Under the pieces are notes generated by a model. That model was not told where the DNA came from. It did no database searches and was given only the letters and a program-made list of their open reading frames with translations. The translations under genes and the position numbers were made by a program. A DNA stretch of 34,749 bases from Patescibacteria group bacterium (GTDB taxonomy: Bacteria > Patescibacteriota > Minisyncoccia > JAHISW01 > Tagabacteraceae): the NCBI GenBank assembly GCA_018819015.1, contig JAHJQY010000004.1, positions 1 to 34,749 on the forward strand, given 5' to 3'. Shown here one piece after another: positions 8,318 through 31,830 of the stretch (positions within the stretch are counted from its first letter, which is position 1; each line of letters starts with the position of its first letter).

Positions 8318-8944
8318 TCACCGCGCCGCGACTAGCCCGATTACTTTTTTCGCGCCGGCCTTTTTCAAGGCCCGGCGCGCTTCGTTTATCGTGGCGCCGG
8401 TGGTTGAAACATCGTCCAGCACGAAAATTTCCTTGTCTTTTATGAGTTCGGCATTTTTTACCGAAAAAGTCCCTTCAAGATTTTTTAATCTTTTTTGCCT
8501 GTCTTTTATTTCAACCTGGGAAACCGTATGGCGATTTTTATAAAGGACATTAGTCAGGATTTTAACAGACATTATTTCAGACAAGTGCCGGGCGATTAAC
8601 TCTGCTTGATTAAAGCCCCGTTCCCGTAAGCGTTTAGGGGAAAGCGGAATCGGAATAATAACCAATGTTCGAAGTTCAACTTCGAACATTGGGGACAAGC
8701 GGGAAGATAGAAGTTCAGCCAGGGGTTTGGCGGCTCGCCCGGCTTTTTTATATTTCAGCGCTTTGATAAGTTTTTTAATGACGGGCGATTCATAGGACGC
8801 GGCGCCGAAGATATCGGGCTCATTTTTTTCTGTTTCAGGGTACGGCAATTTCGCCGCGCATTTTTGGCATAATAAGATTTTTTCTTTTCCGCAGCCGAAA
8901 CATTTTTCAGGGAAGATTAGGTTTAAAATGGAATTTATCCACAT
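8318..8944 (-). CDS. comF: ComF family competence protein (phosphoribosyltransferase fold); likely start ATG 8944
   Basis: FPEKCFGC..CQKC zinc ribbon, LKY, IPIPL..RERGFNQAE, VLDDVSTTGATI PRT motif. Confidence 0.9.
   Translation of the reverse strand: MWINSILNLIFPEKCFGCGKEKILLCQKCAAKLPYPETEKNEPDIFGAASYESPVIKKLIKALKYKKAGRAAKPLAELLSSRLSPMFEVELRTLVIIPIPLSPKRLRERGFNQAELIARHLSEIMSVKILTNVLYKNRHTVSQVEIKDRQKRLKNLEGTFSVKNAELIKDKEIFVLDDVSTTGATINEARRALKKAGAKKVIGLVAAR
8662..8692. repeat. TCGAAGTT(C/G)AACTTCGA palindrome, copy 1 (inside comF)
   Basis: CCAATGTTCGAAGTT-C-AACTTCGAACATTGG, perfect 15-bp arms. Confidence 0.85.
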
Positions 8945-9006
8945 AGCGTTATTATTGCAATATAATAAACTATTTTTTGTGATATAATAAAATTGTAAGA
9001 AATGCA

Positions 9007-10113
9007 ATGGCAAAAAACATTTTTACCGAGTTTTTTCCGAAAATAATCAGAATCTGGTCGCAGCATCAGAGTGTTGTTGGTGTGGACATTGGCAGTTCGT
9101 CAATAAAAATTGTGCAATTGAGAAAAGAAAAAGAAAGGGCGTTTTTGGAAACTTACGGCGAGCTGGCCGCGGGGCCTTACGTCAAACAGCCCATCGGCCA
9201 AATTGTGCAGTTGTCCGAGGGAGTGGCAACCGAAATGCTGAAAGATCTTTTTAGAGAATCGGGCGCCAACGCGAAAGAGGCGGCCGTGGCTATTCCGGTT
9301 AAAAGCAGTTTTATCACGACAATCAAGGTTCCGATGGTGGAAGACAAAAAAACCATGGATGAAGTGATAAAATTTGAAGCGCGCAAATATATCCCCGTTC
9401 CGTTTAATGAGGTGGAGGTTGATTGGTGGATTTTGAATACCAGCGAGCCGGAATCTTCGGGTATTGCAAAAAGACAAATAGTGGAAGTGCTTCTGGCCGT
9501 TATCTATAAGGATGCCATTCGAAAATATCAGAATATTTTGTCCGGTTCCAATTTAAAAATAAAATTATTTGAGGTTGAAATTTTTAGCGGATGGCGTTCC
9601 TTGATTTTCAGGCCGACGACGCCGGTGGCAGTCATTGATTTGGGGGCTTCTTCCACCAAGATGAGTATTGTTGAAGCCGGAGTCCTGCGTTCGTCGTTTA
9701 CGATTGATGCGGGCGCCTGCGCCATAACCAACGCCATTTCAAGATCGCTGGGAATCAGTTTTGAGAGAGCCGAAGAAATGAAACAGCAGATAGGTCTTTC
9801 GTCAAAGCCGGAACACAAAGACATTGTAAAAGTTTCAGAATCTGTTTTAAATTTAATTTTTTCAGAGGCCAAGCAGTTTATCCACGCTTATAACAGGAAG
9901 TACAATAGTTCTGTCGGACAGGTGGTTCTGTCGGGAGGAGGAGCGCTGTTGAACGGAGTTGTGGATATGGCCGTTAAAAATTTAGGCGTGGAGGTTGTGC
10001 TGGCCGATCCGTTCGCAAAAACAGATTATCCTCCGTTTTTGCAGGGGGTTTTGAAAGAAATCGGCCCGACATTTTCAACCGCCGCGGGATTAGCCTTAAA
10101 AGGATTATCATAA
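9007..10113 (+). CDS. pilM: Type IV pilus assembly ATPase-like protein PilM
   Basis: VGVDIGSSSIK, EARKYIP, IDLGASST, VVLSGGGALL, C-terminal TAAGLALK (actin/FtsA fold). Confidence 0.93.
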   Translation: MAKNIFTEFFPKIIRIWSQHQSVVGVDIGSSSIKIVQLRKEKERAFLETYGELAAGPYVKQPIGQIVQLSEGVATEMLKDLFRESGANAKEAAVAIPVKSSFITTIKVPMVEDKKTMDEVIKFEARKYIPVPFNEVEVDWWILNTSEPESSGIAKRQIVEVLLAVIYKDAIRKYQNILSGSNLKIKLFEVEIFSGWRSLIFRPTTPVAVIDLGASSTKMSIVEAGVLRSSFTIDAGACAITNAISRSLGISFERAEEMKQQIGLSSKPEHKDIVKVSESVLNLIFSEAKQFIHAYNRKYNSSVGQVVLSGGGALLNGVVDMAVKNLGVEVVLADPFAKTDYPPFLQGVLKEIGPTFSTAAGLALKGLS

Positions 10114-10676
10114 TGCAAGACAAAATATCTTTTATACCAAAAACAAAATATTCGCAGACCGACAAGATTATTTATAGAGGAGCCGGTTTGGGGCAGATTT
10201 TAAAAATTTCTATTTTTTTGTTTGTTTTGTCGTCGTTGTTTTTTTTGGGAACCCTTGTTTACAAGGAGGTTATTAACCGGCAGCTGGACGACCTTTCGGT
10301 TTCTTTGGAGCGGGCCAAGGCGTCTTTTGACTCGGAGGCCATAAAAGAGATGGAAAACTTGTCTTCAGGTATTAGTATGGTCAAAAATTTTATCGCTTAT
10401 CATCCTTTTCCTTCGCGCATTTTTAGTTTTCTTGAAGAGAACACTTTGTCCGGCGTAAGATTTTCAAGGTTTGATTACTCCCATGATCCCGTAAAAGAAA
10501 AAGTTGGTTTGCGCGGAGAGGCAAAAAATTATGCCGCGCTGGCGCAGCAGGTGAAAGTTTTTGAAAAAACAAAAGAGATAGAAAATTTTACTTTTTCCAA
10601 TTTTGTTTTAACTCAAGGAGGCAATGTTTCTTTTGACCTGGAAATAATATTTAATTTTTCTACTTTAAATTTATGA
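10113..10676 (+). CDS. PilN-like pilus assembly protein
   Basis: Basic N-terminus, single TM helix, periplasmic domain with LRGEAKNY; position right after pilM. Confidence 0.65.
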   Translation: MQDKISFIPKTKYSQTDKIIYRGAGLGQILKISIFLFVLSSLFFLGTLVYKEVINRQLDDLSVSLERAKASFDSEAIKEMENLSSGISMVKNFIAYHPFPSRIFSFLEENTLSGVRFSRFDYSHDPVKEKVGLRGEAKNYAALAQQVKVFEKTKEIENFTFSNFVLTQGGNVSFDLEIIFNFSTLNL

Positions 10677-11209
10677 TGAGAAATATAATCAGCCTTTTGT
10701 TTATCGGCGCGGCCATAGCCATGTTTTTGACCTGGACTAACCCGTATTTAAAGGAAATTGAAGAGTTGAGGGGGCAGCGGCTGGCTTTTAATGAAATTCT
10801 TGATACTTCCCGCCAGCTTGTTGAACTGCGAGACAATCTTCTTTCTAAATTTAATTTAATAACGGCCGATGAATTGTCCAAATTTTCAAAGATAATTCCG
10901 GAAAAATCCGAATCAATCAATTTTGTTTTTCAGCTGTCAAATGTGGCCGAAGCAAAAGGAGTTATTATCAAAAATATAAATTTTTACGAAGCGGTTTCTG
11001 CTGATTCTTCTTCTTCTTCTGTCGATTCAGATTACAAAAAATTAAACATAGACGCTTTTTTTCTCGGCTCCTACGAAGGCTTTAAGGCGCTTGTTGAAGA
11101 GATTGAAAACAGCCTGCGTTTAGTGGATATAAATAAGATAATTTTCTCCGCCGATAAAGAAAATTTATACGAGTTTACTATTAAGGCAACCGCTTATTTT
11201 AAAAAATAA
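10673..11209 (+). CDS. PilO-like pilus assembly protein
   Basis: N-terminal TM helix, coiled coil, IIPEK, GSYEGFK..IENSLRLVDI; ATGA-type overlap with the previous gene. Confidence 0.75.
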   Translation: MMRNIISLLFIGAAIAMFLTWTNPYLKEIEELRGQRLAFNEILDTSRQLVELRDNLLSKFNLITADELSKFSKIIPEKSESINFVFQLSNVAEAKGVIIKNINFYEAVSADSSSSSVDSDYKKLNIDAFFLGSYEGFKALVEEIENSLRLVDINKIIFSADKENLYEFTIKATAYFKK

Positions 11210-11214
11210 AAACA

Positions 11215-11511
11215 ATGATAAAAGATAAAGCAAACATCATTTTTATAATTGTTTTGATAATCTTTCTGGCCGCCGGTTATTTTGGGTACACAAAACAGAA
11301 AAATGAACAGTCGGTCGCGGTGAAGGAAAAAAATTTTAAAAATGAAATTTTTAGGAAAGAATTTATCGCGACGATAAACAAAATTAAGACCATGAACTTG
11401 GACACAGAATTTTTTAAGAGCGAGAGTTTTAAATCTTTGAATGATTTAAGTTTTGATATCGGGACGCCTAAATACAAAGGAAAGAAAAATCCTTTTTTGC
11501 CACTAGAGTAA
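11215..11511 (+). CDS. Small membrane-anchored protein ending GKKNPF (PilP positional analogue)
   Basis: N-terminal TM helix; C-terminal NPF resembles the RDPF motif of PilP; lies between pilO and pilB. Confidence 0.5.
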   Translation: MIKDKANIIFIIVLIIFLAAGYFGYTKQKNEQSVAVKEKNFKNEIFRKEFIATINKIKTMNLDTEFFKSESFKSLNDLSFDIGTPKYKGKKNPFLPLE

Positions 11512-11512
11512 T

Positions 11513-13222
11513 ATGTCTTTTGGAGAAACATTGGTCAAGAAAAATATTGTTAGCACCGACCTGCTTGTCAGAAGCAAGAGGGAGGCGAATTCAAAGAATA
11601 TTTCTTTGGAAGAAGTTTTGATTGGAAGCGGCGTTTCAGAAGACGCTATTACCCAAGCAAAAAGCGAAGCGTTTAATATTCCCGTAAAGAAAGTTACGTC
11701 TTCGGTTCATATTCCGTTAGAGATTTTAAAGCAAATACCGGAAGAATCCGCGAAACACTATAAGTTTGTTCCTTTGGCGCTTGAAGACGGCGTTGTGCAT
11801 ATGGGCATTGTTAATCCGGATGACATGGAAGCGCGCGAAGCTTTGCAGTTTTTGTCTTCTAAATTAAATTTGCCTTTTAAGATTTTTTTAATTTCTTTGT
11901 CTGATTTGGAATTTGTTCTGGAAGATTATAGAAGTTTGGGGGGTGAAACCGCAAAGATTTTGGATGAATTGGAGTCAGTCATAGGCCAGAATCTTGTTTT
12001 GGAAAACGCCGAATCTCCGCGGATAAGAAAAGAAGACGCCCCTGTGACTAAAATGGTCGCCGTGATTTTGAAACATGCCATAGAAGGCAAAGCTTCGGAT
12101 GTTCATATAGAGCCCCAGCGCGACAGGCTGAATGTAAGATTCCGTGTGGATGGCATTTTGCATACCAGCCTTACTTTGCCGCTTAAAGTTCACGAGGCCA
12201 TTGTGTCCAGGATAAAAATTCTTACCAACATGAAGCTGGACGAAAAACGCAAGCCGCAAGACGGCCGTTTTGGGGCGCCGGCCCTGGGCCAGCAAGTTGA
12301 TTTCAGGGTTTCTACTTTCCCGACTTTTTTTGGAGAGAAAGTGGTTATAAGGGTTTTGTCGTCCGCTGAATCTTTGAATACGCTGGAAAAACTTGGTTTG
12401 TTGGGCCGCAATCTTGAACTGACAAAAAATGCTCTGAAAAAGCCATACGGCCTAATTCTTGTTACCGGACCCACGGGTTCAGGCAAGACAAGCACTCTTT
12501 ATTCAATGATTAATATGCTTGATAAAGAAAAATTTAATGTGGTTAGCTTGGAAGATCCTGTTGAATATAACATTGCCGGCGTTAGCCAGTCGCAGGTGCG
12601 GCCGGAAATTGATTATGATTTCGCGAGCGGTTTAAGGTCGGTTTTAAGGCAGGACCCGGATATAATCATGGTTGGCGAAATTAGAGACAACGAAACCGCC
12701 GCCTTGGCCATTCGCGCCGCTTTGACCGGCCATTTGGTTTTTTCCACCCTGCATACCAATAATTCTATCAGCGCCATCCCGCGCTTGCTTGATATGGGGA
12801 TTGAGCCGTTTTTGCTGCCGTCCACTTTGATTTTGGTGGTGGCGCAGCGTTTAGTGAGGACTCTTTGCGAAGAATCAAGAAAACCTTTTCGGTTAGAGGG
12901 CGCGATGAAGGAGATAATAGAAAAAGAACTGAAGGACGCTCCGCCGTTTATTAAAACAAAAATCAATATGCCCAAAGAAATATATCAATCTTTTCCGTCA
13001 TCATCCTGCCCTCGGGGAGTGCGCGGCCGCACCGGCATATTTGAGGTTTTTCAAATGACTCCGGAATTGGAAAAAATAATTTTAACAAACGCGGGCGAAT
13101 CTGATATAATGAAAGAAGTGAGAAATCAAGGAATGTTGACAATGAGAGAAGACGGCATTCTGAAAGTTTTGGAAGGAAAGACGGGGCTGGAAGAATTAAA
13201 AGAAAGCGTACAAACAAAATGA
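11513..13222 (+). CDS. pilB: Type IV pilus / T2SS assembly ATPase PilB/GspE
   Basis: ASDVHIEP, RFRVDG, PQDGR, GPTGSGKT Walker A, LEDPVE, LRQDPDIIMVGEIRD, GHLVFSTLHTN. Confidence 0.93.
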   Translation: MSFGETLVKKNIVSTDLLVRSKREANSKNISLEEVLIGSGVSEDAITQAKSEAFNIPVKKVTSSVHIPLEILKQIPEESAKHYKFVPLALEDGVVHMGIVNPDDMEAREALQFLSSKLNLPFKIFLISLSDLEFVLEDYRSLGGETAKILDELESVIGQNLVLENAESPRIRKEDAPVTKMVAVILKHAIEGKASDVHIEPQRDRLNVRFRVDGILHTSLTLPLKVHEAIVSRIKILTNMKLDEKRKPQDGRFGAPALGQQVDFRVSTFPTFFGEKVVIRVLSSAESLNTLEKLGLLGRNLELTKNALKKPYGLILVTGPTGSGKTSTLYSMINMLDKEKFNVVSLEDPVEYNIAGVSQSQVRPEIDYDFASGLRSVLRQDPDIIMVGEIRDNETAALAIRAALTGHLVFSTLHTNNSISAIPRLLDMGIEPFLLPSTLILVVAQRLVRTLCEESRKPFRLEGAMKEIIEKELKDAPPFIKTKINMPKEIYQSFPSSSCPRGVRGRTGIFEVFQMTPELEKIILTNAGESDIMKEVRNQGMLTMREDGILKVLEGKTGLEELKESVQTK

Positions 13223-13671
13223 TGAAGGGAAAAAAAGAAAAAGCCGGTTTTACAATTATTGAATTGATGGTGGTGGTTGCCGCCGCCGCGATGATTTTAT
13301 CGTTTGTCACTTTTCTTTTTGTGGATAGCAAAAAGAGAAGCAGGGATTCTAGAAGGGAGCGAGACATGAAAGAATTGCAGAATGCGTTGAATTTGTATGC
13401 GGGAAGCAATCAGTTGTTTCCTGTTTGCGGCAGGATCGTTATTGACGGGAGCGCCGACTGTCTTTCAAGCGTTTTAATTTCAGGTGAATTTGTTGTACAT
13501 ATGTCAGCCGATCCGCTTGACAAAGGCGAGGGGTCTTGCGGTGTTTCGGACGACCATGTCTATTGTTATACTTCTGAAGATGGGTTTGGTTATATCTTGG
13601 AATATAATCTTGAAACCGATTCAATTTTAGGCAAATCAGCCGGATGGCAAACTATTGTGGTTAGACATTAA
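13219..13671 (+). CDS. Type IV prepilin / GspG-like (minor pilin candidate)
   Basis: KAG|FTIIELMVVV cleavage-methylation motif, SRDSRRERDM, Cys residues. Confidence 0.85.
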   Translation: MMKGKKEKAGFTIIELMVVVAAAAMILSFVTFLFVDSKKRSRDSRRERDMKELQNALNLYAGSNQLFPVCGRIVIDGSADCLSSVLISGEFVVHMSADPLDKGEGSCGVSDDHVYCYTSEDGFGYILEYNLETDSILGKSAGWQTIVVRH

Positions 13672-13705
13672 ATTGTTAACAAATAATTAGCAAAATAAAG
13701 AAAAA

Positions 13706-14104
13706 ATGGAAAAAAATAAAAAAACAAATATTTTTTTGATTGACGATGACGATTTTCTTTTGGAAATATACGCGGTGAAATTTAAGTCGTCCGGTTTTAA
13801 TGTTGAAGTTGCCCGCGGCGGCGAAGAAGCTTTGGCGAAAATAAAAAATGGTTTTTTGCCCGAAGTGATTTTGTTGGATATTTTAATGCCCAAAATGGAT
13901 GGTTTTGAATTTTTGCAAGCGCTGAAAGAAAATAATATGCTGGATAAATTTTTGTTTGTTGTTTTAAGCAACAAGGGCCAGAAAGACGATATGGAAAAAG
14001 GAAAAAAATTCGGTGTTTCCGAGTATATTATAAAGGCTAATTATACACCAAGCGAGGTCGTTGAAAAAGTTAAAGATCTTTTATCAAAAAGCAATGTCAA
14101 GTGA
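13706..14104 (+). CDS. Stand-alone response regulator receiver (CheY-like)
   Basis: IDDDD acidic pocket, LLDILMPKMDG phospho-Asp, VLSN, YIIKA. Confidence 0.92.
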   Translation: MEKNKKTNIFLIDDDDFLLEIYAVKFKSSGFNVEVARGGEEALAKIKNGFLPEVILLDILMPKMDGFEFLQALKENNMLDKFLFVVLSNKGQKDDMEKGKKFGVSEYIIKANYTPSEVVEKVKDLLSKSNVK

Positions 14105-15164: not shown

Positions 15165-15166
15165 TC

Positions 15167-16378: not shown

Positions 16379-16401
16379 TGTTTGCCCCGCCAGCGGCTGG
16401 G

Positions 16402-16447
16402 TTATCCACACCCGCTTCGTTAATTTTTGCTAACGTAGTGATATAAT
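16402..16447 (+). promoter_or_regulatory. DnaA box plus extended -10 promoter of the pilin
   Basis: TTATCCACA 16402-16410; TG-a-TATAAT 16439-16447. Confidence 0.55.
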
Positions 16448-16494
16448 TATTATTAAGCTAAATAAGGGTCGAAAAGTTTTAATATTTTTAAAAA

Positions 16495-16947
16495 ATGAAA
16501 AAAAATAAAGGTTTTACTTTAATAGAGCTTTTGGTGGTTATTGCCATTATTGGTGTTTTGGCGTCAGTTGTTTTAGCGTCCTTTAATAGCGCCCGCAAGA
16601 AAGCGCGAGACGCGCGCCGAATCGCCGATGTCAAACAATTGCAATTGGCCATGGAGCTTTATTTTGACGCGAATAGCGCTTATCCGGCCACTTTGGCGGC
16701 CTTGGTTACCGGCGGTCATATTTCTACTGTTGCCACCGATCCTCTTGGCGCCGTCGCCTATTCCTATGAATTGTGCTCAGGCGGATTGAATTATCATCTG
16801 GGCGCTTCTTTGGAAGAGTCAACGAATCCGGCTTTGGCCAGCGACAAAGATGGTATCCCGACAGGCTGCACCGGAACATGGTTTATAGACACGGCAAAAT
16901 GTAATGCTGCTCATTCTGGTTCGTATTGTTATGATGTAGCTCCATAA
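16495..16947 (+). CDS. Type IV pilin (major pilin candidate)
   Basis: NKG|FTLIELLVVIAIIGVLA, KARDARRIAD, four Cys in the C-terminal half, own promoter. Confidence 0.9.
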   Translation: MKKNKGFTLIELLVVIAIIGVLASVVLASFNSARKKARDARRIADVKQLQLAMELYFDANSAYPATLAALVTGGHISTVATDPLGAVAYSYELCSGGLNYHLGASLEESTNPALASDKDGIPTGCTGTWFIDTAKCNAAHSGSYCYDVAP

Positions 16948-16968
16948 TATATAGTTCTCGTAAAGTTT

Positions 16969-17763
16969 ATGAGTTATAATAAAAACATGCTAACGCATGT
17001 TTTTATTATTGTTTTTGGCGCCGCGGTCGGCAGTTTTTTGAATGTAGTCATTTTTCGGCTTAACAGCGGAGAGTCGTTTTTGGGGGGAGAGTCGCGCTGT
17101 TTTTCCTGCGGCAAAAAACTTAAATGGCGCGAGCTTGTTCCGGTTTTTAGTTTTTTGATTCAAAAAGGCAGATGCCGCGGCTGTGGCAGTAAAATATCTT
17201 GGCAATACCCGGCAGTAGAAATAATAACAGGCGTATTGTTTTTGGCAACTTTTCAACTATCGAAGTTCAACTTCGATAGTTGCGATATTTGTTGGTTTCT
17301 TTATCCTTATATTTGGCTGCTTGTTAGTTTGTTAATAATTATTGCCGTTTATGATTTGCGGCATTTTATAATTCCCAATAAAATTGTTTGGATTTTTAAT
17401 GTTTTGGCGTTTTTAAACTTACTGGCGCACACAAAATATGCGAAACCCGGTTTCGCTTTTTTATCCGGGGTTGTCTTTTTTTTATTTTTTGCGGCATTGT
17501 GGTTTTTGTCAAAAGGAAAGTGGATGGGTTTTGGCGACGCGAAACTGGCTTTGGGTTTGGGTTGGCTGCTGGGCCCGGTTAAAACATTTTCAGCTTTTTT
17601 GATTTCTTTCTGGTTGGGGGCGTTTGTCGGCCTGTTGCTGATCGTTCTTAAAAAGGGCAAATATACCATGATGAGCAGGATTCCTTTCGCGCCGTTTCTT
17701 ATAGCCGGTTCGCTTTTATCGTTTTTTATTAATTTTGATATTTTAAGTTTTTTTAATTTTTAA
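16969..17763 (+). CDS. pilD: Prepilin peptidase / N-methyltransferase (start could be ATG 16987)
   Basis: GSFLNVVI, SRCFSC..GRCRGC, YPAVE, catalytic YDL and GFGDAKL, IPFAPF. Confidence 0.93.
   Translation: MSYNKNMLTHVFIIVFGAAVGSFLNVVIFRLNSGESFLGGESRCFSCGKKLKWRELVPVFSFLIQKGRCRGCGSKISWQYPAVEIITGVLFLATFQLSKFNFDSCDICWFLYPYIWLLVSLLIIIAVYDLRHFIIPNKIVWIFNVLAFLNLLAHTKYAKPGFAFLSGVVFFLFFAALWFLSKGKWMGFGDAKLALGLGWLLGPVKTFSAFLISFWLGAFVGLLLIVLKKGKYTMMSRIPFAPFLIAGSLLSFFINFDILSFFNF
17254..17282. repeat. TCGAAGTT(C/G)AACTTCGA palindrome, copy 2 (inside pilD)
   Basis: CAACTATCGAAGTT-C-AACTTCGATAGTTG, perfect 14-bp arms. Confidence 0.85.
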
Positions 17764-20016: not shown

Positions 20017-21461
20017 CAAAGATTAATCTTGCCGAATTAAACATAAAGAAGGCTCATGAGTTATTGCGGGGCGGAGAAATTTCAGCGCGCGAGTTGGTGG
20101 ATTTTTATCTGGAAAACATAAAAAGGCATGATAAAAATATCCATGCTTATCTTGAAGTTTTTGACGATGTGTTTGAGCAGGCCGAAGCAGTAGATAAAAA
20201 AATTAAATTAGGAAAAGAATTGCCGCTTTTGGCCGGAATTCCTCTGGCGGTTAAAGATCTTATTTTAATAAAAAGCAAAAAATGCTCGGCCGGGTCAAAA
20301 ATTCTTGAAAATTTCAACGCGCCATACAGCGCCGCCGTAATAGAAAAATTAGACAACCAAGGCGCTGTTTATTTGGGGAGGACAAACATGGACGAGTTTG
20401 CCATGGGCGTCTCAACCGAATATTCCGCTTTCGGCCCGACCAAAAATCCTTATGATTTGAAAAGGGTGCCGGGTGGCTCTTCTGGCGGTTCGGCGGCGGC
20501 CGTGGCTCAACAAGAATGCTTGGCCGCCTTGGGTTCTGACACTGGCGGCTCTATACGCCAACCGGCCTCTTTTTGCGGCCTGGTGGGCTTAAAGCCGACC
20601 TACGGCTCTGTTTCAAGGCGGGGTTTAATCGCTATGGCTTCTTCTTTGGACCAGATCGGGCCTTTAACAAAAACAGTGGAAGACGCGGAAATAATTTTCG
20701 GCGCCATAAAAGGCAAAGATCCGCTGGATTCCACTTCTGTGGGAAATCCGATTTCCCACAAGTCTGCAACAAAGTCGGACTTCGTCGTTGGCGTTCCGAA
20801 AGAATTTTTTAATATGGAAGGAGAGAACAAGGGAATTTCCGAAGATGTCATAAAAAACACAAAAAAGGCGATAAATAATTTAAAAACGCGGGGTTTTAAA
20901 ATAAAAGAAGTGAGCATTCCGAGCTTAAATTATGTCGTGGAAACTTACTATATTATTATGCCGGCCGAAGTTTCCACTAACCTGGCGCGTTATGACGGTG
21001 TAAAATACGGATTAGCCAAAAAGGGGAAGACGCTTTTGGAAGATTATTTAAAAACAAGGCGGGCCGGTTTTGGCGATGAACCGAGAAGAAGAATTTTGTT
21101 GGGCAATTATGTTTTATCATCAGGTTATTACGACGCTTTTTATGGAAGGGCGAGGAGGGCGGTTAGCGCTATGAAAAATGATTTTAAAAAAGTTTTTTCG
21201 GAGGTAGATATACTTTTAAGTCCGACCACTCCAACCTCGGCTTTTAAAATTGGAGAAAAAACCGGCAATCCGGTTGAAATGTATTTGGCGGACATTTTTA
21301 CTTGCGGGGCTAATTTGGCCGGCTTGCCGGCGATATCTTTGCCCAATGGTCTTAGTGAAAACGGCTTGCCGATTGGTTTGCAGTTTATCGCGCCGTGGTT
21401 TGAAGAAGAAAAATTATTTGAAACAGGTAAAGTTTTTGAAAAATGCGGACTCCAAATTTAA
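20013..21461 (+). CDS. gatA: Asp/Glu-tRNA amidotransferase subunit A
   Basis: AVKD, NMDEFAMG, PGGSSGGSAAAVA, GSDTGGSIRQPA, LARYDG, RRRILLG. Confidence 0.97.
   Translation: MTKINLAELNIKKAHELLRGGEISARELVDFYLENIKRHDKNIHAYLEVFDDVFEQAEAVDKKIKLGKELPLLAGIPLAVKDLILIKSKKCSAGSKILENFNAPYSAAVIEKLDNQGAVYLGRTNMDEFAMGVSTEYSAFGPTKNPYDLKRVPGGSSGGSAAAVAQQECLAALGSDTGGSIRQPASFCGLVGLKPTYGSVSRRGLIAMASSLDQIGPLTKTVEDAEIIFGAIKGKDPLDSTSVGNPISHKSATKSDFVVGVPKEFFNMEGENKGISEDVIKNTKKAINNLKTRGFKIKEVSIPSLNYVVETYYIIMPAEVSTNLARYDGVKYGLAKKGKTLLEDYLKTRRAGFGDEPRRRILLGNYVLSSGYYDAFYGRARRAVSAMKNDFKKVFSEVDILLSPTTPTSAFKIGEKTGNPVEMYLADIFTCGANLAGLPAISLPNGLSENGLPIGLQFIAPWFEEEKLFETGKVFEKCGLQI
20738..20782. repeat. Two adjacent palindromes in gatA
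   Basis: TGTGGGAAATC-C-GATTTCCCACA (20738-20760) and AAGTC-G-GACTT (20772-20782). Confidence 0.6.
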
Positions 21462-22445: not shown

Positions 22446-22456
22446 CTAAAAACGTT

Positions 22457-23017
22457 GTGCAAAAAGAAACTAAAATCTTAATAGGAAAAATTATATTGGC
22501 CACAATTGCTTCAGCCGGAATTTTAACAGTAGCAGCCGTGGCGCCCAATGCCTTGCGGGCAATAGATTTATTTCGTGATAAAAAGAAAAGAAAATATCAT
22601 ATGGGTTCTTATGTGAATAGAAATTTTGAAAGACTAAAAGACAGGGGCTTGATTAAATTTGAAAAACGAGACGATAAAAGTTTCGTTCGGCTCACCGAAA
22701 AAGGCCAGCGAGAATTATTAAAATATCAATTGCGGGAGGCGATTATTAAAAAACCGAGATGGTGGGATAAAAAATGGCGGGTTGTTATTTTTGATATTAA
22801 AGAAAGCGCGCGTAATCTTAGAAAGGGCTTAAGGCAGGAATTGGTTAATTTGGGTTTTGTTAAATTACAAAATAGTGTTTGGGTATACCCTTATGAATGT
22901 GGGGAGGTGATAATTATGCTGAAATCTTATTTTTGTTTAGGGAAAGATGTTTTATATATGACGGTTGATAAAATAGAGAATGATAAGTGGTTGAAGCAGG
23001 AGTTTGGTTTGAGTTAG
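22457..23017 (+). CDS. PaaX-like protein: N-terminal hydrophobic helix, wHTH, Cas2-like (PaaX central) domain
   Basis: RLKDRGLI..VRLTEKG wHTH wing; WDKKWRVVIFDI..R..LR..L..LGFVKLQNSVW Cas2-like ferredoxin fold; GTG start. Confidence 0.85.
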   Translation: MQKETKILIGKIILATIASAGILTVAAVAPNALRAIDLFRDKKKRKYHMGSYVNRNFERLKDRGLIKFEKRDDKSFVRLTEKGQRELLKYQLREAIIKKPRWWDKKWRVVIFDIKESARNLRKGLRQELVNLGFVKLQNSVWVYPYECGEVIIMLKSYFCLGKDVLYMTVDKIENDKWLKQEFGLS

Positions 23018-23065
23018 TTGGGTTTTTAATTTAACTAAACCAAAAAGATAAAGAAAATAAAAAAG

Positions 23066-24033: not shown

Positions 24034-24043
24034 CTTAAAATAT

Positions 24044-24077
24044 AAAACAGGCTATTTTTTAAAAATAGCCTGTTTTT
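24044..24077 (+). terminator. Palindromic, possibly bidirectional terminator
   Basis: AAAACAGGCTATTTTT-T-AAAAATAGCCTGTTTT, 16-bp arms, 10 nt after the stop. Confidence 0.75.
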
Positions 24078-24117
24078 GTTTTTGCAAACTGATTTTTTGA
24101 GTGCTAAAATAATACCA

Positions 24118-25353: not shown

Positions 25354-25371
25354 TTATTTTAATTTATACTT

Positions 25372-26124: not shown

Positions 26125-27089
26125 GAGTATATATTACACGTAAAATTCCAGAATCTGGAATTAACAAATTAAAAGAAAAGGGCTACGAAGTTGATGTTAA
26201 TCCGGAGGACAAAGTTTTGCCTAAAGAAGAATTGATAGTTGCCTTGAAGGCTAAGTCTTACGATGCGGTTTTGTGTCTTTTAACCGACAAGATTGATGAC
26301 GATGTTTTCTTGGCCGCGCCGCAGGCAAAAATTTTCGCCAATTACGCCGTTGGTTTTGATAACATTGATTTGGTCGTCGCTCAAAAACATAATAAATTAA
26401 TTAGCAATACTCCGGGAGTTTTGACTGAAACAGTGGCCGAACATACTTTTGCTTTGATGCTAGCCATAGCTCATCGTGTGGCCGAAGCGGATAAATTTAC
26501 AAAGGCAGGGCAATATAAAGGCTGGGCGCCGATGCTTTTGCTGGGTACGGATTTGTCGCATAAAACTTTGGGGATAATCGGCCTGGGGCGAATCGGTTCA
26601 AGGGTGGCTTACCACGCCAGCAGGGGTTTTGATATGAAGGTTGTTTATTATGACGTAAAAAGAAATGAAGAATTTGAAAAAGAATTTAATGCTGTTTATA
26701 AAGAAGTAGATGATCTTTTGAAAGAAGCTGATTTTGTTTCTTTGCATGTGCCTCTTTTGGAATCAACGAAACATTTGATTAACGCCGAACGATTGAAAAT
26801 GATGAAAAAGGGGGCGTATCTTGTGAACACCTCAAGGGGGCCGGTTATTGATGAAAACGCTCTTGTTGGCGCGTTAAAAGAAGGGTTAATCAAGGGCGCG
26901 GCGCTTGATGTTTTTGAGCAGGAGCCGAAATTGGCTGAGGGTTTGGCCGAACTTGATAATGTGATTTTGACGCCCCATATCGCTTCGGCTACGCAAGAAA
27001 CCCGTTCAAAAATGTCGGAAATTGCCGCCGATAACATTATCGCGGCCATGGAAGGTAGCGAGCCGCCGAATCTTGTCTTGTTAATCTAA
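26121..27089 (+). CDS. D-isomer-specific 2-hydroxyacid dehydrogenase (glyoxylate reductase / D-glycerate dehydrogenase-like)
   Basis: AVGFDNID, NTPGVLTETVAE, GIIGLGRIG, NTSRGPVIDE, LDVFEQEP, TPHIASAT. Confidence 0.93.
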   Translation: MRVYITRKIPESGINKLKEKGYEVDVNPEDKVLPKEELIVALKAKSYDAVLCLLTDKIDDDVFLAAPQAKIFANYAVGFDNIDLVVAQKHNKLISNTPGVLTETVAEHTFALMLAIAHRVAEADKFTKAGQYKGWAPMLLLGTDLSHKTLGIIGLGRIGSRVAYHASRGFDMKVVYYDVKRNEEFEKEFNAVYKEVDDLLKEADFVSLHVPLLESTKHLINAERLKMMKKGAYLVNTSRGPVIDENALVGALKEGLIKGAALDVFEQEPKLAEGLAELDNVILTPHIASATQETRSKMSEIAADNIIAAMEGSEPPNLVLLI

Positions 27090-27112
27090 ATTAATTTTGC
27101 TATTGTTTTAAA

Positions 27113-27769
27113 ATGGAAAAATTGAAACTGAAAGCTGAAAAAAGAGATATTTTTGGAAAGCCGCTTGTCAAAGCGCGGAATGCGGGCAAGATGCCGGCTG
27201 TTTTGTATGGAAGCGGCCGGGGAACAACTCCGATTTTTGTTGATTTTGCCGACTTCAAAAAAATTTGGTCAAAAGCCGGCGAGTCAGCCGTGGTTGATTT
27301 AGAATTGCATCAAAATGTTGTCCAGGTGCTTATTTATGATGTTGACAATGATCCAATAAGCCGCCAGCCTCGGCACGCCGATTTTTACGCGGCGGACATG
27401 ACAAAAGAAATTACCGCTTCTGTGCCGCTTGTTTTTATTGGTGAATCACCGGCGGTCAAGCTTGGCGGAGTGCTGGTTAAAGTTCTTTATGAAATTGAAG
27501 TGGAGGCCTTGCCAAAAGATTTGCCGCAGGAAATAAAAACGGATATATCCGTTCTTGAAAGTTTTGACGATAAAATTACGATAGGCGATCTGAAATTATC
27601 CGAAGGGGTAAAGGCGCTGCTGCCGTTTAATGAAGTAGTGGCATTGGTTGAAGAAACGAAAGAAGAGTCCTTCGACACGGCTCAGGATAAAGAACAGATA
27701 AACATGGAAAACATTGAAGTTGAGAAAAAGGGCAAAAAGCAAGAAGAAGAGGAGTCTAAAACCGAATAA
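27113..27769 (+). CDS. rplY: 50S ribosomal protein L25/Ctc (long form)
   Basis: PAVLYG, HADFY, VPLVFIGESPAVK.GG, EVEALP.DLP, acidic tail. Confidence 0.95.
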   Translation: MEKLKLKAEKRDIFGKPLVKARNAGKMPAVLYGSGRGTTPIFVDFADFKKIWSKAGESAVVDLELHQNVVQVLIYDVDNDPISRQPRHADFYAADMTKEITASVPLVFIGESPAVKLGGVLVKVLYEIEVEALPKDLPQEIKTDISVLESFDDKITIGDLKLSEGVKALLPFNEVVALVEETKEESFDTAQDKEQINMENIEVEKKGKKQEEEESKTE

Positions 27770-29073
27770 TGAATGAATTATCAAAATTTCTCACGGTATT
27801 TTTCGTCTTTTTTTTGCCGATAGGTTTTTTGCTGGCGGAAGTAATTGACCCCGGCAAGGTGCTGGAGCAGCGGGCTCAACTGGAAACGCAATTGGCTGAA
27901 ATAGAAAAGCAGATGGAAGGATATGAGAACCTCATAAAAGGCAAGCAAGTTGAAGCCACTACGTTTGAGCGAGATATTTCTATTTTGAATGCCCAGATAG
28001 ACAAAACAAAACTTGGTATTAAGGCCAGAGACATTGTTGTTGCCGAGTTGAATTCCGGCATAAAAGATTGCGCCGGCGCGATAGATAAATATGAAAAACA
28101 GATAAGCGAAGAAAAGATTTCTTTGTCGGAACTTTTGCGGAGAATGAATGAGATGGATTTTACCAATTTGGTTGAAATAGTTTTGGGGTACGAAACTTTG
28201 TCTGATTTTTTCGCGGATTTTGATTCGTTTGAATCAATACAAAAAGAAGTGCAAGCCTCGCTGTCCGAGATAAAAGACACGCAGAATAAAACGGCGGTTG
28301 AAAAATCTTCGCTTGAAGACCAGAAAACGGAACAGCTTAAATTGCGCGATATTCAAGCTCTTGAAAAGAAAAATCTTGAAAAGAAAGAAACGGAAAAGAA
28401 TAATCTCCTTAAGTCTACCAAGGGGCAGGAAGATGTTTATCAAAAAATATTGAAAGCGCGCCAAAAAGACGCCACGGCCATAAGAAGCCAGCTTTTCGTT
28501 TTGCGCGGTTCAGCCGCCATACCTTTTGAAAAGGCGGTGCAATATGCCAATTTGGCTTTTGAAAAAACCGGCGTCAGGCAAGCTTTTCTTTTGGGGGTTA
28601 TCGCTGAAGAATCAAATTTGGGAGAAAATGTCGGCACCGGCAATTGGAAAATCGATTTGGCTGATTCAAGGTGCGCGAAACAAAGAGATGCTTTTGTTGA
28701 AATTACTCTTGAGTTGGGGCTTAACCCCGATATTTTGCCGGTTTCCAAAAAAGCTTGGTACGGGTATTGCGGTGGCGCCATGGGTCCGGCCCAGTTTATG
28801 CCCACAACGTGGCTGCTTTACAAAAACAAGATATCTCAATTGACGGGCCATAACCCTCCCAGCCCATGGGATCCGCATGATGCTTTTATGGCCTCGGCGT
28901 TTCTTTTGAAAGACAATGGCGCCGCCGCCGGAGGATATACCGCCGAAAGAAGAGCGGCTTTAAGATATTTGGCGGGCGGCAATTGGAACAATCCGGCTTA
29001 CGCTTTTTACGGAGATGATGTTATGGATTTGGCGTTTAAGTACCAGGAGCAGATTGACATAATTTCGCGATAG
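27769..29073 (+). CDS. Exported coiled-coil protein with C-terminal lytic murein transglycosylase (MltB/SLT_2-like) domain
   Basis: Signal/TM helix, long heptad region, AEESNLG (putative catalytic Glu), [21 protein letters not shown]. Confidence 0.82.
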
Positions 29074-29797
29074 ATTCGGCAATTTTCTCAAAATCTCCTC
29101 CATTCAAAATCTTTTCTATATTGTGCCAGCTTTTTTTGAAGCGGTGGTCTGTAATGCGGTCTTGCATAAAATTATAAGTGCGGATTTTTTCCGACCGGTC
29201 TTGCGTTCCTATTTGCCCTTTTCGCAAATCGCCAATAGATTTAATTTTGGCTTCTTGGGCGGCCTGAATAAGTTTAGCCCTTAGAACGGTCATGGCCTCT
29301 TCTCTGTTTCTTTGCTGGCTTCTTTCACTTTCACTTTTGACAACCAGGCCGGTGGGTTTATGCGTAATGCGAACGGATGTTTCAACTTTGTTGACATTTT
29401 GGCCGCCTTTTCCTCCCGCGCGCGCGAATCCTATTTCAATATCTTCCGGGCGGATTTCAATGTCTCCTCCTTCATTTTCATACAGCGGCAAAATTGAAAC
29501 CGAGGCTGTGGAAGTATGAATGCGCCCGGATTTTTCCGTGGCCGGTATTCTTTGCACGCGATGGACTCCGGATTCGTGCCGGAGTTTTTTGTAGGCCTCG
29601 TTGTTTTTTATTTTAAAAACCACCTCTTTTATTCCTCCGAGGTCGTCTTTTGACTGGCTGATTAGTTTTGTCGGCCAATTTTGCGATTCCGCGTATCTGG
29701 AATACATTTTATAAAGACTGTCGGCAAAAAGCGCGGCTTCTTTGCCCCCGGCTCCGGCGCGGATTTCCATGATAATTCCTTTTGATTCCGTTTCCAT
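29036..29797 (-). CDS. prfA: Peptide chain release factor 1-like, lacking N-terminal domain 1
   Basis: [29 protein letters not shown] (PxT), [10 protein letters not shown] (GGQ), [14 protein letters not shown]; only 253 aa. Confidence 0.85.
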
Positions 29798-30039
29798 TAT
29801 TTTTTCTTTTTGGCGGCTTTGGCTTGCCCGCTTGTTCTGGCTAGGGCTTGCCTGCTTTTGAATTTTTCAACTCTTCCGGCCGTGTCTATGATTTTTTTCT
29901 TGCCGGTAAAAAATGGATGGCACTTGGCGCAAATTTCCACCCCTGTTTCTTTTTTGGTTGAACCGGCGGTGATTTTATTGCCGCAAACGCATTTTATAAC
30001 GGCGTTCGGATAATATGTTGGGTGGATATCTTTTTTCAT
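29797..30039 (-). CDS. rpmE: 50S ribosomal protein L31 (zinc-binding form)
   Basis: [31 protein letters not shown]. Confidence 0.97.
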
Positions 30040-30090
30040 GATTTAAGATTTAACTTGCAATAAATTTTTTAATTGTTTAAACTGAATTTT

Positions 30091-30825
30091 ATGACGGTAA
30101 ATAATGATAACATACAAGAAGATTTACTGAAAGAGAGTGAAGATATGTGCAGATCAGGGGTTCATTTTGGGTATTCCCGTTCTTCAAGCCATCCAAAAAT
30201 GAAGCCTTATTTTTTTGGCGTCAAGAACAATGTAGAGATTTTTAATTTGGAAAAAATCACCCTTAAGCTCAAGGAGGCGGAAATTTTTTTGAATAATTTG
30301 GGTTCAAAAGGAGCAAAAATTTTGTTTGTGGCGACAAAACCTGAAGCGAAAGATATTGTTGAAAAGGCCGCCAAAGAATTAAACATGCCCCATGTCGTTG
30401 AGAGATGGCTGGGGGGAACGTTGACTAATTTTGGCGCGATTCAAAAAAGACTCTCTTTTTTTAAGAGTTTGCAGGCCAAAAAAGCAGCTGGAGAATTTCC
30501 AAAATATTCCAAAAAAGAAGCGGGGAGGCTTGAAAAAAAATTAGCAAAGATGGAAAGAAATTTTGGCGGATTACAGCTGTTTGCCGAAAAACCGGCGGCG
30601 GTTATAGTTGTTGATTCAAAAAAAGAAAAGTCCGCCATTGAAGAGGCCCGCAAGCTTGGAATTCCCGTGGTGGCTATTTTAAATAGTGATTGCGACCCCG
30701 CGCCGGTGGATTATCTTATCCCGGGCAGCGATACTGTTACATCAAGCATTCAATATTTTTTAGACAAATTAACCGCGGCCTATAAAGAAGGGCAGAAAAA
30801 CAAAAAAGAAAAAGAAGTGGTATAA
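30091..30825 (+). CDS. rpsB: 30S ribosomal protein S2 (start probably ATG 30091)
   Basis: GVHFG, HPKMKPY, ILFVATK, RWLGGTLTNF, GIPVVA..DCDP, VDY.IPG.D. Confidence 0.96.
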   Translation: MTVNNDNIQEDLLKESEDMCRSGVHFGYSRSSSHPKMKPYFFGVKNNVEIFNLEKITLKLKEAEIFLNNLGSKGAKILFVATKPEAKDIVEKAAKELNMPHVVERWLGGTLTNFGAIQKRLSFFKSLQAKKAAGEFPKYSKKEAGRLEKKLAKMERNFGGLQLFAEKPAAVIVVDSKKEKSAIEEARKLGIPVVAILNSDCDPAPVDYLIPGSDTVTSSIQYFLDKLTAAYKEGQKNKKEKEVV

Positions 30826-30837
30826 TACAAATTATTT

Positions 30838-31284
30838 ATGGATGCTTCTAAAGTTAAAGAATTAAGAGAAAAAACCGGCGTTTCCGTGATGCTTTGCAAA
30901 AAGGCGCTGGAGGATTCAGGCGGCGACGAAGTCGGCGCCATGGAGTGGCTAAAGAAACAGGGAGTTGAGGCCGCCGAAAAAAAATCCGGCCGCAGCACTA
31001 AGGCGGGCGTTATGGAAGCTTATATCCACAACAACGGCCAAATAGGCGTTTTGGTTGAACTTCGCAGTGAAACCGATTTCGTCGCTAAAAATCCGGATTT
31101 TAAAGAAATTGCGCATAATATCGCTTTGCATATTGCCGCTTCGTGCCCTGATGGTACGAAAGATTTGCTCGAACAGCCGTATATAAAGAACCCGGAGATT
31201 ACAATCGCCGAATATCTGAATGAATCCATACAAAGATTCGGCGAAAATATAGAAATTGCCCGTTTTGAACGTTTTGTTTTGTAG
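30838..31284 (+). CDS. tsf: Elongation factor Ts, short form (148 aa)
   Basis: VKELREKTG..M.CKKAL, ELRSETDFVA, LLEQPYIK, GENIEIARF. Confidence 0.93.
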   Translation: MDASKVKELREKTGVSVMLCKKALEDSGGDEVGAMEWLKKQGVEAAEKKSGRSTKAGVMEAYIHNNGQIGVLVELRSETDFVAKNPDFKEIAHNIALHIAASCPDGTKDLLEQPYIKNPEITIAEYLNESIQRFGENIEIARFERFVL

Positions 31285-31297
31285 CTGTAATTATATT

Positions 31298-31657
31298 ATG
31301 ACTTTTTTGGAAGTTTTAATTTTGATATTTTTTCTGTCTCTAATCGGGATTATTTGTTTGTTTGGCTGCCGCGCTTATTTTAGCAGGCATCTGGACAACA
31401 AGGAGCTTTTGAAAGAAATTTCCTCCAGTAAGCCGCTTTTTTCATTTAAAATAAATTTAAGTTTTCTTTCCGGCCTGTTTCTTGGTTTGGCAAAAAAGTC
31501 GGAATTTTTTAAAAAACATTTTTTTAATTTTAAAGATTATGTGAACGGCAAGCACCCGGTGGAAAGCAGTGGCTGCAGGGGATATTGGGATAAATTGAAT
31601 GGTTGCAATGGGGATAAAAATAAAAAAGAAGATTGCCAGGATAGCTCAGTTGGTTAG
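31298..31657 (+). CDS. Hypothetical membrane protein (likely start ATG 31298)
   Basis: N-terminal TM helix; the stop codon falls inside the broken tRNA-Thr 5' half. Confidence 0.5.
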   Translation: MTFLEVLILIFFLSLIGIICLFGCRAYFSRHLDNKELLKEISSSKPLFSFKINLSFLSGLFLGLAKKSEFFKKHFFNFKDYVNGKHPVESSGCRGYWDKLNGCNGDKNKKEDCQDSSVG

Positions 31658-31674
31658 AGCAATGGTTTTGCCCG

Positions 31675-31767
31675 CCCCGTTAGAGCTGGAGTAGCTCAGT
31701 TGGTCAGAGCAACGGTTTTGTAAACCGTAGGCCGCGAGTTCGAATCTCGCCTCCAGCTCTAACGGGG
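31675..31767. mobile_element. Inverted-repeat-bounded cassette (CCCCGTTAGA ... TCTAACGGGG) enclosing the intact tRNA-Thr
   Basis: 10-bp perfect terminal inverted repeats at 31675-31684 and 31758-31767, directly abutting the tRNA ends; mobility is inferred. Confidence 0.45.
31685..31758 (+). tRNA. tRNA-Thr(UGU)
   Basis: GCTGGAG/CTCCAGC acceptor, ACGGT-TTTGTAA-ACCGT anticodon arm, GCGAGTTCGAATCTCGC T arm; CCA not encoded. Confidence 0.95.
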
Positions 31768-31794
31768 TAAATAGGTCGTGAGTTAATTATCCAA

Positions 31795-31830
31795 CCCCAA
31801 CTGTTCGAAGTTGAACTTCGAACATTGGGG
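31795..31830. repeat. TCGAAGTT(C/G)AACTTCGA palindrome, copy 3 (intergenic)
   Basis: CCCCAA-C-TGTTCGAAGTT-G-AACTTCGAACA-TTGGGG; nearly identical to the reverse complement of the comF copy. Confidence 0.85.

Follow-up and report, generated by a model that had tools for sequence, protein, structure and literature searches.

Repetitive extragenic palindromes (REPs) are mostly transcribed and located 3' of genes (PMC3733652), and in-frame intragenic copies, including copies inside the gene of their transposase, have already been described (PMC3733652; PMC6006769). Class 2 of the corresponding enzymes carries the signature Y---NP (PMC6006769). For one group among the TnpA_Y1 proteins, subclass 2.1, Quentin et al. 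(2018) found no REP-like sequences nearby (PMC6006769), and related genes flanked by inverted repeats have been described under the name TIRYT (Di Nocera et al. 2013). The spread of REPs is still described as poorly understood (PMC8266576). Here we analyse a stretch of 34,749 nucleotides from a Patescibacteria group bacterium (contig JAHJQY010000004.1 of assembly GCA_018819015.1; the whole stretch is called the window below), in which one short palindrome occurs three times: within the competence gene comF, within the pilus gene pilD, and in the spacer between a tRNA-Thr gene and rpmF. We propose, with a probability of about 0.75, that these palindromes are a REP-like hairpin family in co-evolution with a HUH/Y1 transposase of ~230 aa resembling subclass 2.1, which most likely recognises, cuts and spreads them. 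By analogy with TnpA_REP of Escherichia coli and TnpA of IS608, this enzyme would mobilise or homogenise the copies, and those residing inside genes would be passengers that ComF and PilD tolerate, with no functional part in either protein.

Three copies of one palindrome

The window holds the 17-mer TCGAAGTT-S-AACTTCGA three times against 0.01 occurrences expected, a count that none of 100 dinucleotide shuffles reached, which rules out chance or base composition as its origin. Exact TCGAAGTTSAACTTCGA matches lie at 8669-8685, 17260-17276 and 31805-31821, and the window holds no additional match to the 17-mer at up to two mismatches. The perfect arms, listed here together with the genes that host or adjoin the copies, come from an exhaustive hairpin scan of the window.

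8318-8944, minus strand: comF, encoding a ComFC-type phosphoribosyltransferase-fold protein of 208 aa from MWINS..., with Pfam PF00156 (Pribosyltran) and PF18912 (double zinc ribbon)
8662-8692: palindrome copy 1, in comF; 15-bp perfect arms, subfamily CCAATGTTCGAAGTT-S-AACTTCGAACATTGG, read on the minus strand as PMFEVELRTL
16969-17763, plus strand: pilD, encoding a prepilin peptidase / N-methyltransferase, with Pfam PF06750 (A24_N_bact) and PF01478 (Peptidase_A24)
17254-17282: palindrome copy 2, in pilD; 14-bp perfect arms, subfamily CAACTATCGAAGTT-C-AACTTCGATAGTTG, read as QLSKFNFDS(C)
31685-31759, plus strand: tRNA-Thr(TGT), called by ARAGORN and Rfam, left of copy 3
31795-31830: palindrome copy 3, in the tRNA-Thr/rpmF spacer; perfect 11-bp arms over 31802-31824
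31825-32166, plus strand: rpmF (ribosomal protein L32), open reading frame (ORF) as listed, right of copy 3

An earlier note, made from the letters of this DNA, had recognised one palindrome family in three places, with 15-bp arms in comF and 14-bp arms in pilD and with the peptides PMFEVELRTL and QLSKFNFDSC. All of this is borne out, and the comF and pilD ORFs are both open across the palindromes. The note was also right that the comF and intergenic copies share outer arms, CCCCAA(C)TGTTCGAAGTT / AACTTCGAACATTGGGG, while those of the pilD copy, CAACTATCGAAGTT / AACTTCGATAGTTG, differ and are still perfectly complementary. In copy 3 the outer arms CCCCAAC-TG / CATTGGGG are paired with one bulged C, and if this bulge is allowed pairing reaches 31795-31830 (17-18 bp). 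Folded as single-stranded DNA (ssDNA), copies 1, 2 and 3 give -15.2, -12.5 and -15.9 kcal/mol (z = -9.4, -7.5 and -5.3, respectively).

An assembly artefact is excluded because contigs of other runs carry the same copies: Logan contigs from three other groundwater runs match the pilD stretch without a difference, and one from another run (L118) contains the comF copy. The nearest protein relatives place the window in a Parcubacteria-like organism of the Patescibacteria. It corresponds to record positions 31961-66709 of a 67.9-kb contig, k141_130457, in ENA assembly ERZ27247117, from groundwater, and 44.7 kb of this source contig (the window plus 9.9 kb upstream) hold no extra copies, exact or degenerate. 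No Rfam family is matched at the three palindrome sites, and the intergenic copy has neither a terminator-like tail nor a T-run that would make it an intrinsic terminator; a promoter-like site lies downstream of it, at 31849-31877.

Hairpins with arms of at least 11 bp number 10 in the window against 0.15 expected, and three of the 10 are this family. Unrelated perfect palindromes are found at 24044-24076 (16-bp arms, between two ORFs), at 2654-2683 (G+C-rich 14-bp arms, at the start of secA) and at 20738-20760 (11-bp arms, within gatA). A further perfect hairpin with 15-bp arms, ataataaaaacatgc TAAC gcatgtttttattat, spans 16976-17009 over the listed start of pilD. It is probably the terminator of the preceding pilin gene, and because this stretch itself forms such a hairpin the true start of pilD is probably the ATG at 16987. 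The real start of rpmF, likewise, is probably further downstream than listed, because the Pfam match begins at residue 26.

The family brackets a Y1 transposase gene in two phyla

Locus L204, from a relative, carries a Y1_Tnp gene between pilD and the pilin gene. A tblastn search with the protein of this gene found homologs at 44-48% identity in L034 and L077, two loci that had been fetched solely because they contain the 17-mer. Palindromes of the same build bracket the Y1 gene in six of eight loci (L034, L077, L210, L213, L214 and L215), three of them from Patescibacteria and three from Thermodesulfovibrionia, and at least four of the six also have an in-frame copy inside the gene. The search for a co-occurring HUH/TnpA-REP enzyme that the earlier note had recommended was therefore clearly positive, with a Y1 gene flanked by the family in both groups. 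The bracketed genes are arranged as follows.

L077: Y1 gene at 6257-6949, with tTATCGAAGTTGAACTTCGATAa at 6214-6234 and 6951-6973
L034: Y1 gene between two near-copies, with a perfect copy 130 bp upstream
L213 (Patescibacteria): upstream copy 9902-9930, in-gene copy 10424-10452, downstream copy 10667-10697
L210 (Patescibacteria): upstream copy 9958-9986, in-gene copy 10481-10507, downstream copy at 10717
L214 (Patescibacteria): upstream copy ACTAGTGAGGTT-S-AACCTCgCTAGT with one mismatch, in-gene near-copy with the right arm of the flanks, downstream copy of the ACTAGTGAGGTT-S-AACCTCACTAGT type with 19-bp arms
L215 (Thermodesulfovibrionia): upstream copy ATTATCGGAATC-C-GATTCCGATAAT, degenerate downstream copy, further copy 6 kb off

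The inner stem differs between genomes via compensated changes. As read from the DNA, in-gene and flanking copies are of one type within L210 and within L213, and in L214 they agree in one arm; in L215 the peptide NYGNRIPI suggests that the in-gene copy would match its flanks as well. A palindrome-type peptide, NY[RG]xSTSI, follows directly after the catalytic tyrosine in 54 of 100 homologs, the 100 being those of the top 120 that have a delimitable linker. In L034 (5319-6029) the in-gene copy keeps the outer arms TTATCGA...TCGATA and has an inner hairpin, GGGGAGTATTG/CAATACGCCCC, that is both longer and different.

The palindrome upstream of the Y1 gene in L213 (9902-9944) holds TTGAAG, 17 nt, and then TATAAT just before the start codon, and L210 has the same layout of hairpin and promoter. 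The promoter of the Y1 gene is likely built into the hairpin, which would suggest autoregulation.

Six aligned Y1 proteins are ~230 aa long, with the motifs PNH[FY]HL, FQG, Y[IVL]H[LT]NP and YRWSS, and belong to Pfam family Y1_Tnp (PF01797). The NCBIfam model for REP-associated tyrosine transposases (RAYTs), NF047646, is the top match for all three Y1 proteins and the sole match for two, at 34-38 bits, below its cut-off of 80. Motifs and length match TnpA_Y1 subclass 2.1 (RAYT group 1 of Bertels et al. 2017; Table 1 of PMC6006769), an assignment made by motifs only and not with the profiles of those authors. No solved structure was found for the protein by sequence at E <=1. The clade comprises at least 6373 proteins at E <=1e-10. 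It includes Patescibacteria members that are 54-58% identical to the Thermodesulfovibrio one, and identity between members from Patescibacteria and from Thermodesulfovibrionia is 44-58%, which suggests horizontal transfer. Two divergent Y1 paralogs lie within 10 kb of each other in L210.

One of the bracketed genes appears to be from the same organism as the window. L213 is contig k141_499003 of ENA assembly ERZ27247117, the assembly that contains the window. Its GC content is 0.407, against 0.410 for the window; the tetranucleotide correlation between the two is r = 0.990, equal to that of one half of the window with the other and above that of every other locus; and the two share no conflicting single-copy gene. 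The in-gene copy of L213, CAACTATCGAAGTC-C-GACTTCGATAGTTG, is one compensated pair away from the pilD copy of the window. We infer that k141_499003 is part of the window's genome. In L214, the Y1 gene and its flanking palindromes stand beside rpmF and nusB-NUDIX, in a block that is syntenic with the window at 27-33 kb, and copy 3 of the window, which is slightly asymmetric, is found at the spot corresponding to the L214 Y1 gene. Copy 3 may be a remnant, or a forerunner, of such a gene.

Build, covariation and distribution of the repeat

The repeat is composed of conserved outer arms, an inner stem of 5-6 bp with compensated variation, and one unpaired central base (C or G). The outer arms are (C)AACTATCG in Parcubacteria-type genomes and TTATCG in Thermodesulfovibrionia and Colwellbacteria. 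Among 15 copies from Patescibacteria, 95.7% of cells are paired and eight of 14 pairs have changed on both sides; none of 500 shuffles scored as high, and slid controls were 22-46% paired. The variant arms are subtypes of the family that recur across loci and genomes. The earlier note had supposed that symmetry is either maintained or generated on insertion. The compensated changes support maintenance; nothing indicates generation on insertion, the variant arms being shared subtypes. Its description of a selfish repeat is likewise supported, and the palindromes are a repeat family rather than a product of chance.

A scan for the 17-mer in one genome per species (596 Gb) returned mostly chance matches with arms of exactly 8 bp. 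Ordinary terminators in L025, L111, L073 and L052, which share the core by chance, were set aside. The same scan found clusters of TATCGAAGTT-S-AACTTCGATA in metagenome-assembled genomes (MAGs) of Thermodesulfovibrionia, in one Colwellbacteria MAG and in Saccharibacteria. One 3.17-Mb chromosome of Thermodesulfovibrionia has six such loci, and MAG CAZZGC has seven exact copies on five contigs; copies in this group are nearly all intergenic, many of them no more than 20 bp past a stop codon. L080, from an unclassified MAG, has three overlapping tandem cores, TCGAAGTTCAACTTCGAAGTTCAACTTCGAAGTTGAACTTC, at 6094-6140 and, ~400 bp off at 6487-6511, a copy identical to that upstream of the Y1 gene of L213.

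Palindromes inside ComF and PilD

In alignments of 25 orthologs for each protein, both palindromes fall where its length varies most. The AlphaFold model of ComF (predicted local distance difference test, pLDDT, 90.6) places P85-L94 in a loop between helix 69-83 and strand 94-98, the block of lowest pLDDT apart from the N-terminus, and that of PilD (pLDDT 80.1) places Q96-S104 at the end of helix 79-101 and in the short loop, also of low pLDDT, that leads to helix 108-132. The earlier note had inferred that the palindromes add peptide loops, a view that the ortholog comparison does not support, as linker lengths with and without a palindrome overlap. The ComF linker of the window, from LKY to PxP, has 35 residues, compared with a median of 37 for 106 orthologs that lack a palindrome-type peptide (ComF homologs, called so by their sources, number 3993), and the PilD loop has 47 residues against a median of 41 (interquartile range 39-48) in orthologs without a palindrome peptide. 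Furthermore, L120, a syntenic relative, has a decayed copy of the same palindrome at the same position of comF, in a linker one codon shorter than that of the window. Simple net insertion is ruled out by these two comparisons. The idea that the unit length is always a multiple of three was also dropped: the conserved unit has 25 nt (ACTAT to ATAGT), or 27-31 nt with the outer pairs. No conserved target sequence was seen in the flanks of the copies.

The palindrome AACTATCGAAGTT-S-AACTTCGATAGTT imposes different demands in each reading frame. Frame 1 gives N-Y-R-S-S-T-S-I and must have C as the central base, since G gives TGA; frame 2 gives ..E-V-E/Q-L-R and then a stop at CGA-TAG, so that variant outer arms are needed; frame 3 gives L-S-K-F-N-F-D-S and is free of constraint. 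In the window, pilD uses frame 3 and comF uses frame 2, whose stop is removed by the variant arms GTTCGAAG...CTTCGAAC. These arms were not made for comF, because the same subtype occurs in the non-coding copy 3. The same two loops are occupied in relatives only ~55-65% identical in protein.

comF linker of L203: AACTATCGAAGTgGAACTTCGATAGTT, frame 1; a lone asymmetric base turns TGA into GGA
comF linker of L204: AACTATCGAGGTT-C-AACCTCaATAGTT
comF linker of L206: AACTATCGACAT-CCG-ATGTCGATAGTT
comF linker of L119: two cores, in a nested palindrome with 21-bp arms
pilD loop of L203: GAGGTT/AACCTC variant, frame 1
pilD loop of L204: CCAACTATCGACCTC-C-GAGGTCGATAGTTGG, frame 3
pilD loop of P0136: peptide NYRSGTSII
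pilD loop of P0129: peptide MEVELP

The pilD loop of L120 has no palindrome. Because the same loops carry the palindrome in different frames and with different inner stems, the conserved object is the nucleic acid and not the peptide. In addition, the imperfect variant AACTATCGAGGTT-C-AACCTCaATAGTT is found both in comF of L204 and in pilD of L203, that is, in different genes of different genomes, and therefore the sequence moves between sites, which is the signature of copy-and-paste. The palindrome is not a general trait of comF in Patescibacteria, as 828 kb of sequence, mostly from 80 metagenomic comF loci, contain no copy at up to two mismatches.

Other sequences are found in the same two loops. 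In the PilD loop of L206 (pilD at 1511-2269), P0135, P0143, P0149, P0153 and P0169 there are NFQFSIFN-type peptides from AATTTTCAATTTTCAATTTT, and the reverse reading, WSLKIEN, occurs elsewhere in those proteins; AATTTTCAATTTTCAATTTT looks like a second short DNA repeat residing in protein loops. The comF linkers of L173, L133 and L141 hold unrelated palindromes whose arms have 10-13 paired bases each, with one mismatch allowed. A recurrent peptide in the ComF proteins P0026, P0060, P0100 and P0101, ETRFPLGNRVS, would derive, judging from the protein, from a perfect palindrome GAAACGCGATTCCC-N-GGGAATCGCGTTTC.

Neighbouring genes

The window and its relatives have further features that could be of interest. 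A gene for a PaaX-like protein lies in the lowest-GC stretch of the window, and an AbiE-type toxin-antitoxin / abortive-infection pair sits between secA and a methyltransferase gene, with tRNA genes on its flanks.

22457-23017, plus strand: PaaX-like protein with a winged helix and a Cas2-like PaaX_M domain, in DNA of GC 0.346
5759-6511, minus strand: AbiEii
6498-7118, minus strand: AbiEi_4, completing the pair that spans 5759-7118

A PaaX-like paralog, 32% identical, adjoins comF in L204. The earlier note had named a PaaX-like enzyme among candidate mobilisers; the gene is there at 22457-23017, but no palindrome copy stands beside it, nor beside its paralog in L204. In L203, a close relative, a reverse-transcriptase gene (RVT_1, 9224-10273) lies directly downstream of comF, and in L120 a gene with 23S_rRNA_IVP / bAvd-like domains (16919-17290) lies between rpoB and rpoC.

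Comparison with described systems

The family and its enzyme resemble the REP/RAYT systems of E. coli, Pseudomonas and Stenotrophomonas in their short dispersed hairpin-forming palindromes; in a Y1/HUH gene, perhaps also low in copy number, with an HUH motif and Y---NP, bracketed by its own type of repeat; in the presence of repeats elsewhere in the genome (CAZZGC, which includes L077, and the L215 copy 6 kb off); in the co-variation of repeat and enzyme between genomes; and in copies that, given intergenic space, mostly lie immediately 3' of genes, with occasional in-frame intragenic ones. They differ in that the 44 copies tabulated here have no GTAG or CGTC tag at the hairpin foot, and in that REP stems are imperfect and G+C-rich whereas these stems are perfect, A+T-rich at the base and have one unpaired base. 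No REPIN doublets (paired REPs) were seen here, the hosts are Patescibacteria and Thermodesulfovibrionia, and two of the three window copies are intragenic.

The proteins of subclass 2.1 and the TIRYT group are similar in length (~230-238 aa), in the motifs NH[YF]H, FQ and Y[IV]HLNP, in a C-terminal tail with a conserved SS, and in a patchy spread across phyla that suggests horizontal transfer, and self-complementary repeats, in families of moderate size, lie on the flanks of some TIRYT genes. However, TIRYT repeats mostly share GGGGWSAS, which is absent here, where the flanks are perfect palindromes of one build, (C)AACTATCG / TTATCG, and where 54 of the 100 delimitable top homologs have an in-frame copy inside the gene. 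With IS200/IS605 elements and palindrome-associated transposable elements (PATEs) the system shares Y1/HUH chemistry on ssDNA hairpins and subterminal hairpins on both sides of the transposase gene. In contrast, IS200 TnpA has ~150 aa and Y---Q, as opposed to ~230 aa and Y---NP; insertion sequence copies are near-identical and multi-copy, whereas the Y1 paralogs of L210 are divergent; and a solitary unit here consists of a single hairpin instead of a pair of ends.

Rickettsia palindromic elements (RPEs), to which the palindromes had been compared earlier, are also in-frame palindromic repeats in tolerant regions of coding genes, but they measure ~100-150 bp and add 30-50 residues, whereas the units described here have 25-35 bp and cause no measurable lengthening, and sequence and host are unrelated. 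To our knowledge, no transposase is known for RPE-1. The comparison is an analogy only, and the nearer relatives are REPs (PMC3733652; PMC6006769).

Discussion

Our results can be set against several explanations in which a Y1 transposase has no part. A primary role at the RNA level, with transcript stem-loops acting as processing, stability or pausing signals, is unlikely. The predicted hairpins are strong, the covariation preserves pairing, and copies in Thermodesulfovibrionia lie just 3' of stop codons, where REPs, reported as mostly transcribed, also lie (PMC3733652); yet no Rfam family is matched, the intergenic copy has no T-run terminator, copies are found in both orientations and all three reading frames, and the only mismatch to recur, on the sense strand of both host genes, is C-A and not a G-U wobble. 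This role would leave the tie to the Y1 gene unaccounted for, and could hold in addition to recognition by the transposase. Perfect dyad symmetry is also what one would expect of operators for a dimeric regulator, such as the PaaX-like protein at 22457-23017, that co-regulates competence, pilus and ribosomal-protein genes. The window has a gene for a PaaX_M protein, another adjoins comF in L204, and the upstream copy in L213 spans a -35/-10-like pair, so that a bound protein could regulate the Y1 gene. However, two of the three copies are deep within ORFs, neither PaaX-like gene has an adjacent copy, several inner-stem variants surround one gene in L213, which fits a hairpin and not a fixed half-site, and many of the copies in Thermodesulfovibrionia are found past stop codons between convergent genes, all of which makes an operator function quite improbable.

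It is very improbable that the palindromes arose locally in tolerant loops by template switching (quasi-palindrome correction), with no mobility and no enzyme. Such an origin could explain why arms are perfectly complementary even where copies differ, why linker length is not increased, and why unrelated hairpins are found in the same linker of other comF genes, but not why the same 17-31 bp sequence stands at three unrelated loci of one contig, why the same imperfect variant appears in different genes of different genomes, or why the family brackets the Y1 gene. Template switching may nevertheless restore symmetry after mutation. The location of two of the three copies in comF and pilD also raises the idea that they are DNA uptake sequences, which a naturally competent Patescibacterium would have in excess in its competence genes. 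The uptake sequences of Neisseria and Haemophilus likewise occur in frame in poorly conserved parts of proteins. We find this idea hardly credible, since the density is ~1 per 12-15 kb, where known uptake sequences reach roughly 1 per kb, the same family brackets a transposase gene in another phylum, and no further copy is present in the 828 kb that come mostly from metagenomic comF loci.

Some observations, on the other hand, weigh against a family that is spread by the Y1 enzyme. There is no Y1 gene in the window or in the 9.9 kb upstream of it, and the evidence that places L213 in the same genome is limited to composition and a shared assembly. The Y1 genes of L204 and L159 (two of the eight loci) are flanked by unrelated hairpins; comF and pilD of L204 nonetheless carry this palindrome family. 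Canonical REPs have a GT[AG]G guide that these repeats lack, and subclass 2.1 has been reported as REP-less. Linker lengths give no sign of net insertion, no insertion or excision polymorphism was seen in the contigs of other runs, and random transposition does not readily explain why several genomes have copies in the same two loops, in different frames. Finally, a palindromic 17-mer has just eight free positions, and because of this a match between phyla in the core only is weaker than it looks; the argument rests on the context of the Y1 gene.

If the Y1 transposase does act on the family, it would recognise the hairpin on ssDNA and would cut and rejoin at the hairpin foot, by analogy with IS608 TnpA and E. 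coli TnpA_REP (PMC6006769), and copies would then spread or become homogenised. Recognition of shape plus outer arms, as we propose, could be the reason why inner stems drift and outer arms are constant. The gene of the enzyme would typically hold one copy just upstream, one just past its stop codon and usually one in frame inside, with other copies scattered over the genome. A Patescibacteria genome is dense in genes, and copies would persist there in spacers or in length-tolerant surface linkers, here the helix-to-strand loop of ComF and the inter-helix loop of PilD; within genes, only loops that tolerate any of the three peptides would keep a copy, in a frame without stops. Intragenic copies would form a visible fraction because the genome has very little spacer DNA. 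The reuse of the same loops in different frames and without gain in length could be due to an ancient insertion followed by local turnover or gene conversion, or to preferential re-insertion.

Yet another possibility, which we regard as doubtful, is that a single perfect hairpin of 25-35 nt is the complete non-autonomous unit of a subclass-2.1 Y1 enzyme, and that this enzyme is a site-preferring, length-neutral editor of coding sequence that repeatedly rewrites the ComF linker, the PilD loop and its own post-tyrosine linker. The enzyme would have persisted in reduced Patescibacteria genomes for tens of millions of years, and might be linked to the handling of ssDNA in competence. Such a unit, if real, would be shorter than any REPIN doublet or miniature inverted-repeat transposable element.

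The phenomenon is not new in kind, because in-frame intragenic REPs and REPs inside RAYT genes have already been published. What is new is the host phylum, as the literature searched has no paper that joins Patescibacteria (or the Candidate Phyla Radiation) with REPs or RAYTs; the perfect, untagged palindrome with a single central base and its tie to a Y1 subclass thought to be without repeats; and the conserved in-gene copy, together with the finding that orthologous loops of ComF and PilD are occupied in three frames. Subclass 2.1, which is the largest RAYT group (group 1), was previously without a known DNA partner, and this family offers a very simple substrate, consisting of a perfect stem with one central base, in which a constant outer stem can be set against a variable inner one. 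The enzyme clade has thousands of members and, because its hosts here have tiny genomes, every copy can be placed. Patescibacteria proteins hold repeat-derived segments in variable loops, which matters for annotation, for alignment-based phylogeny and for the interpretation of "lineage-specific insertions", and the repeated occupation of the same loops in three frames is a testable puzzle of targeting versus selection.

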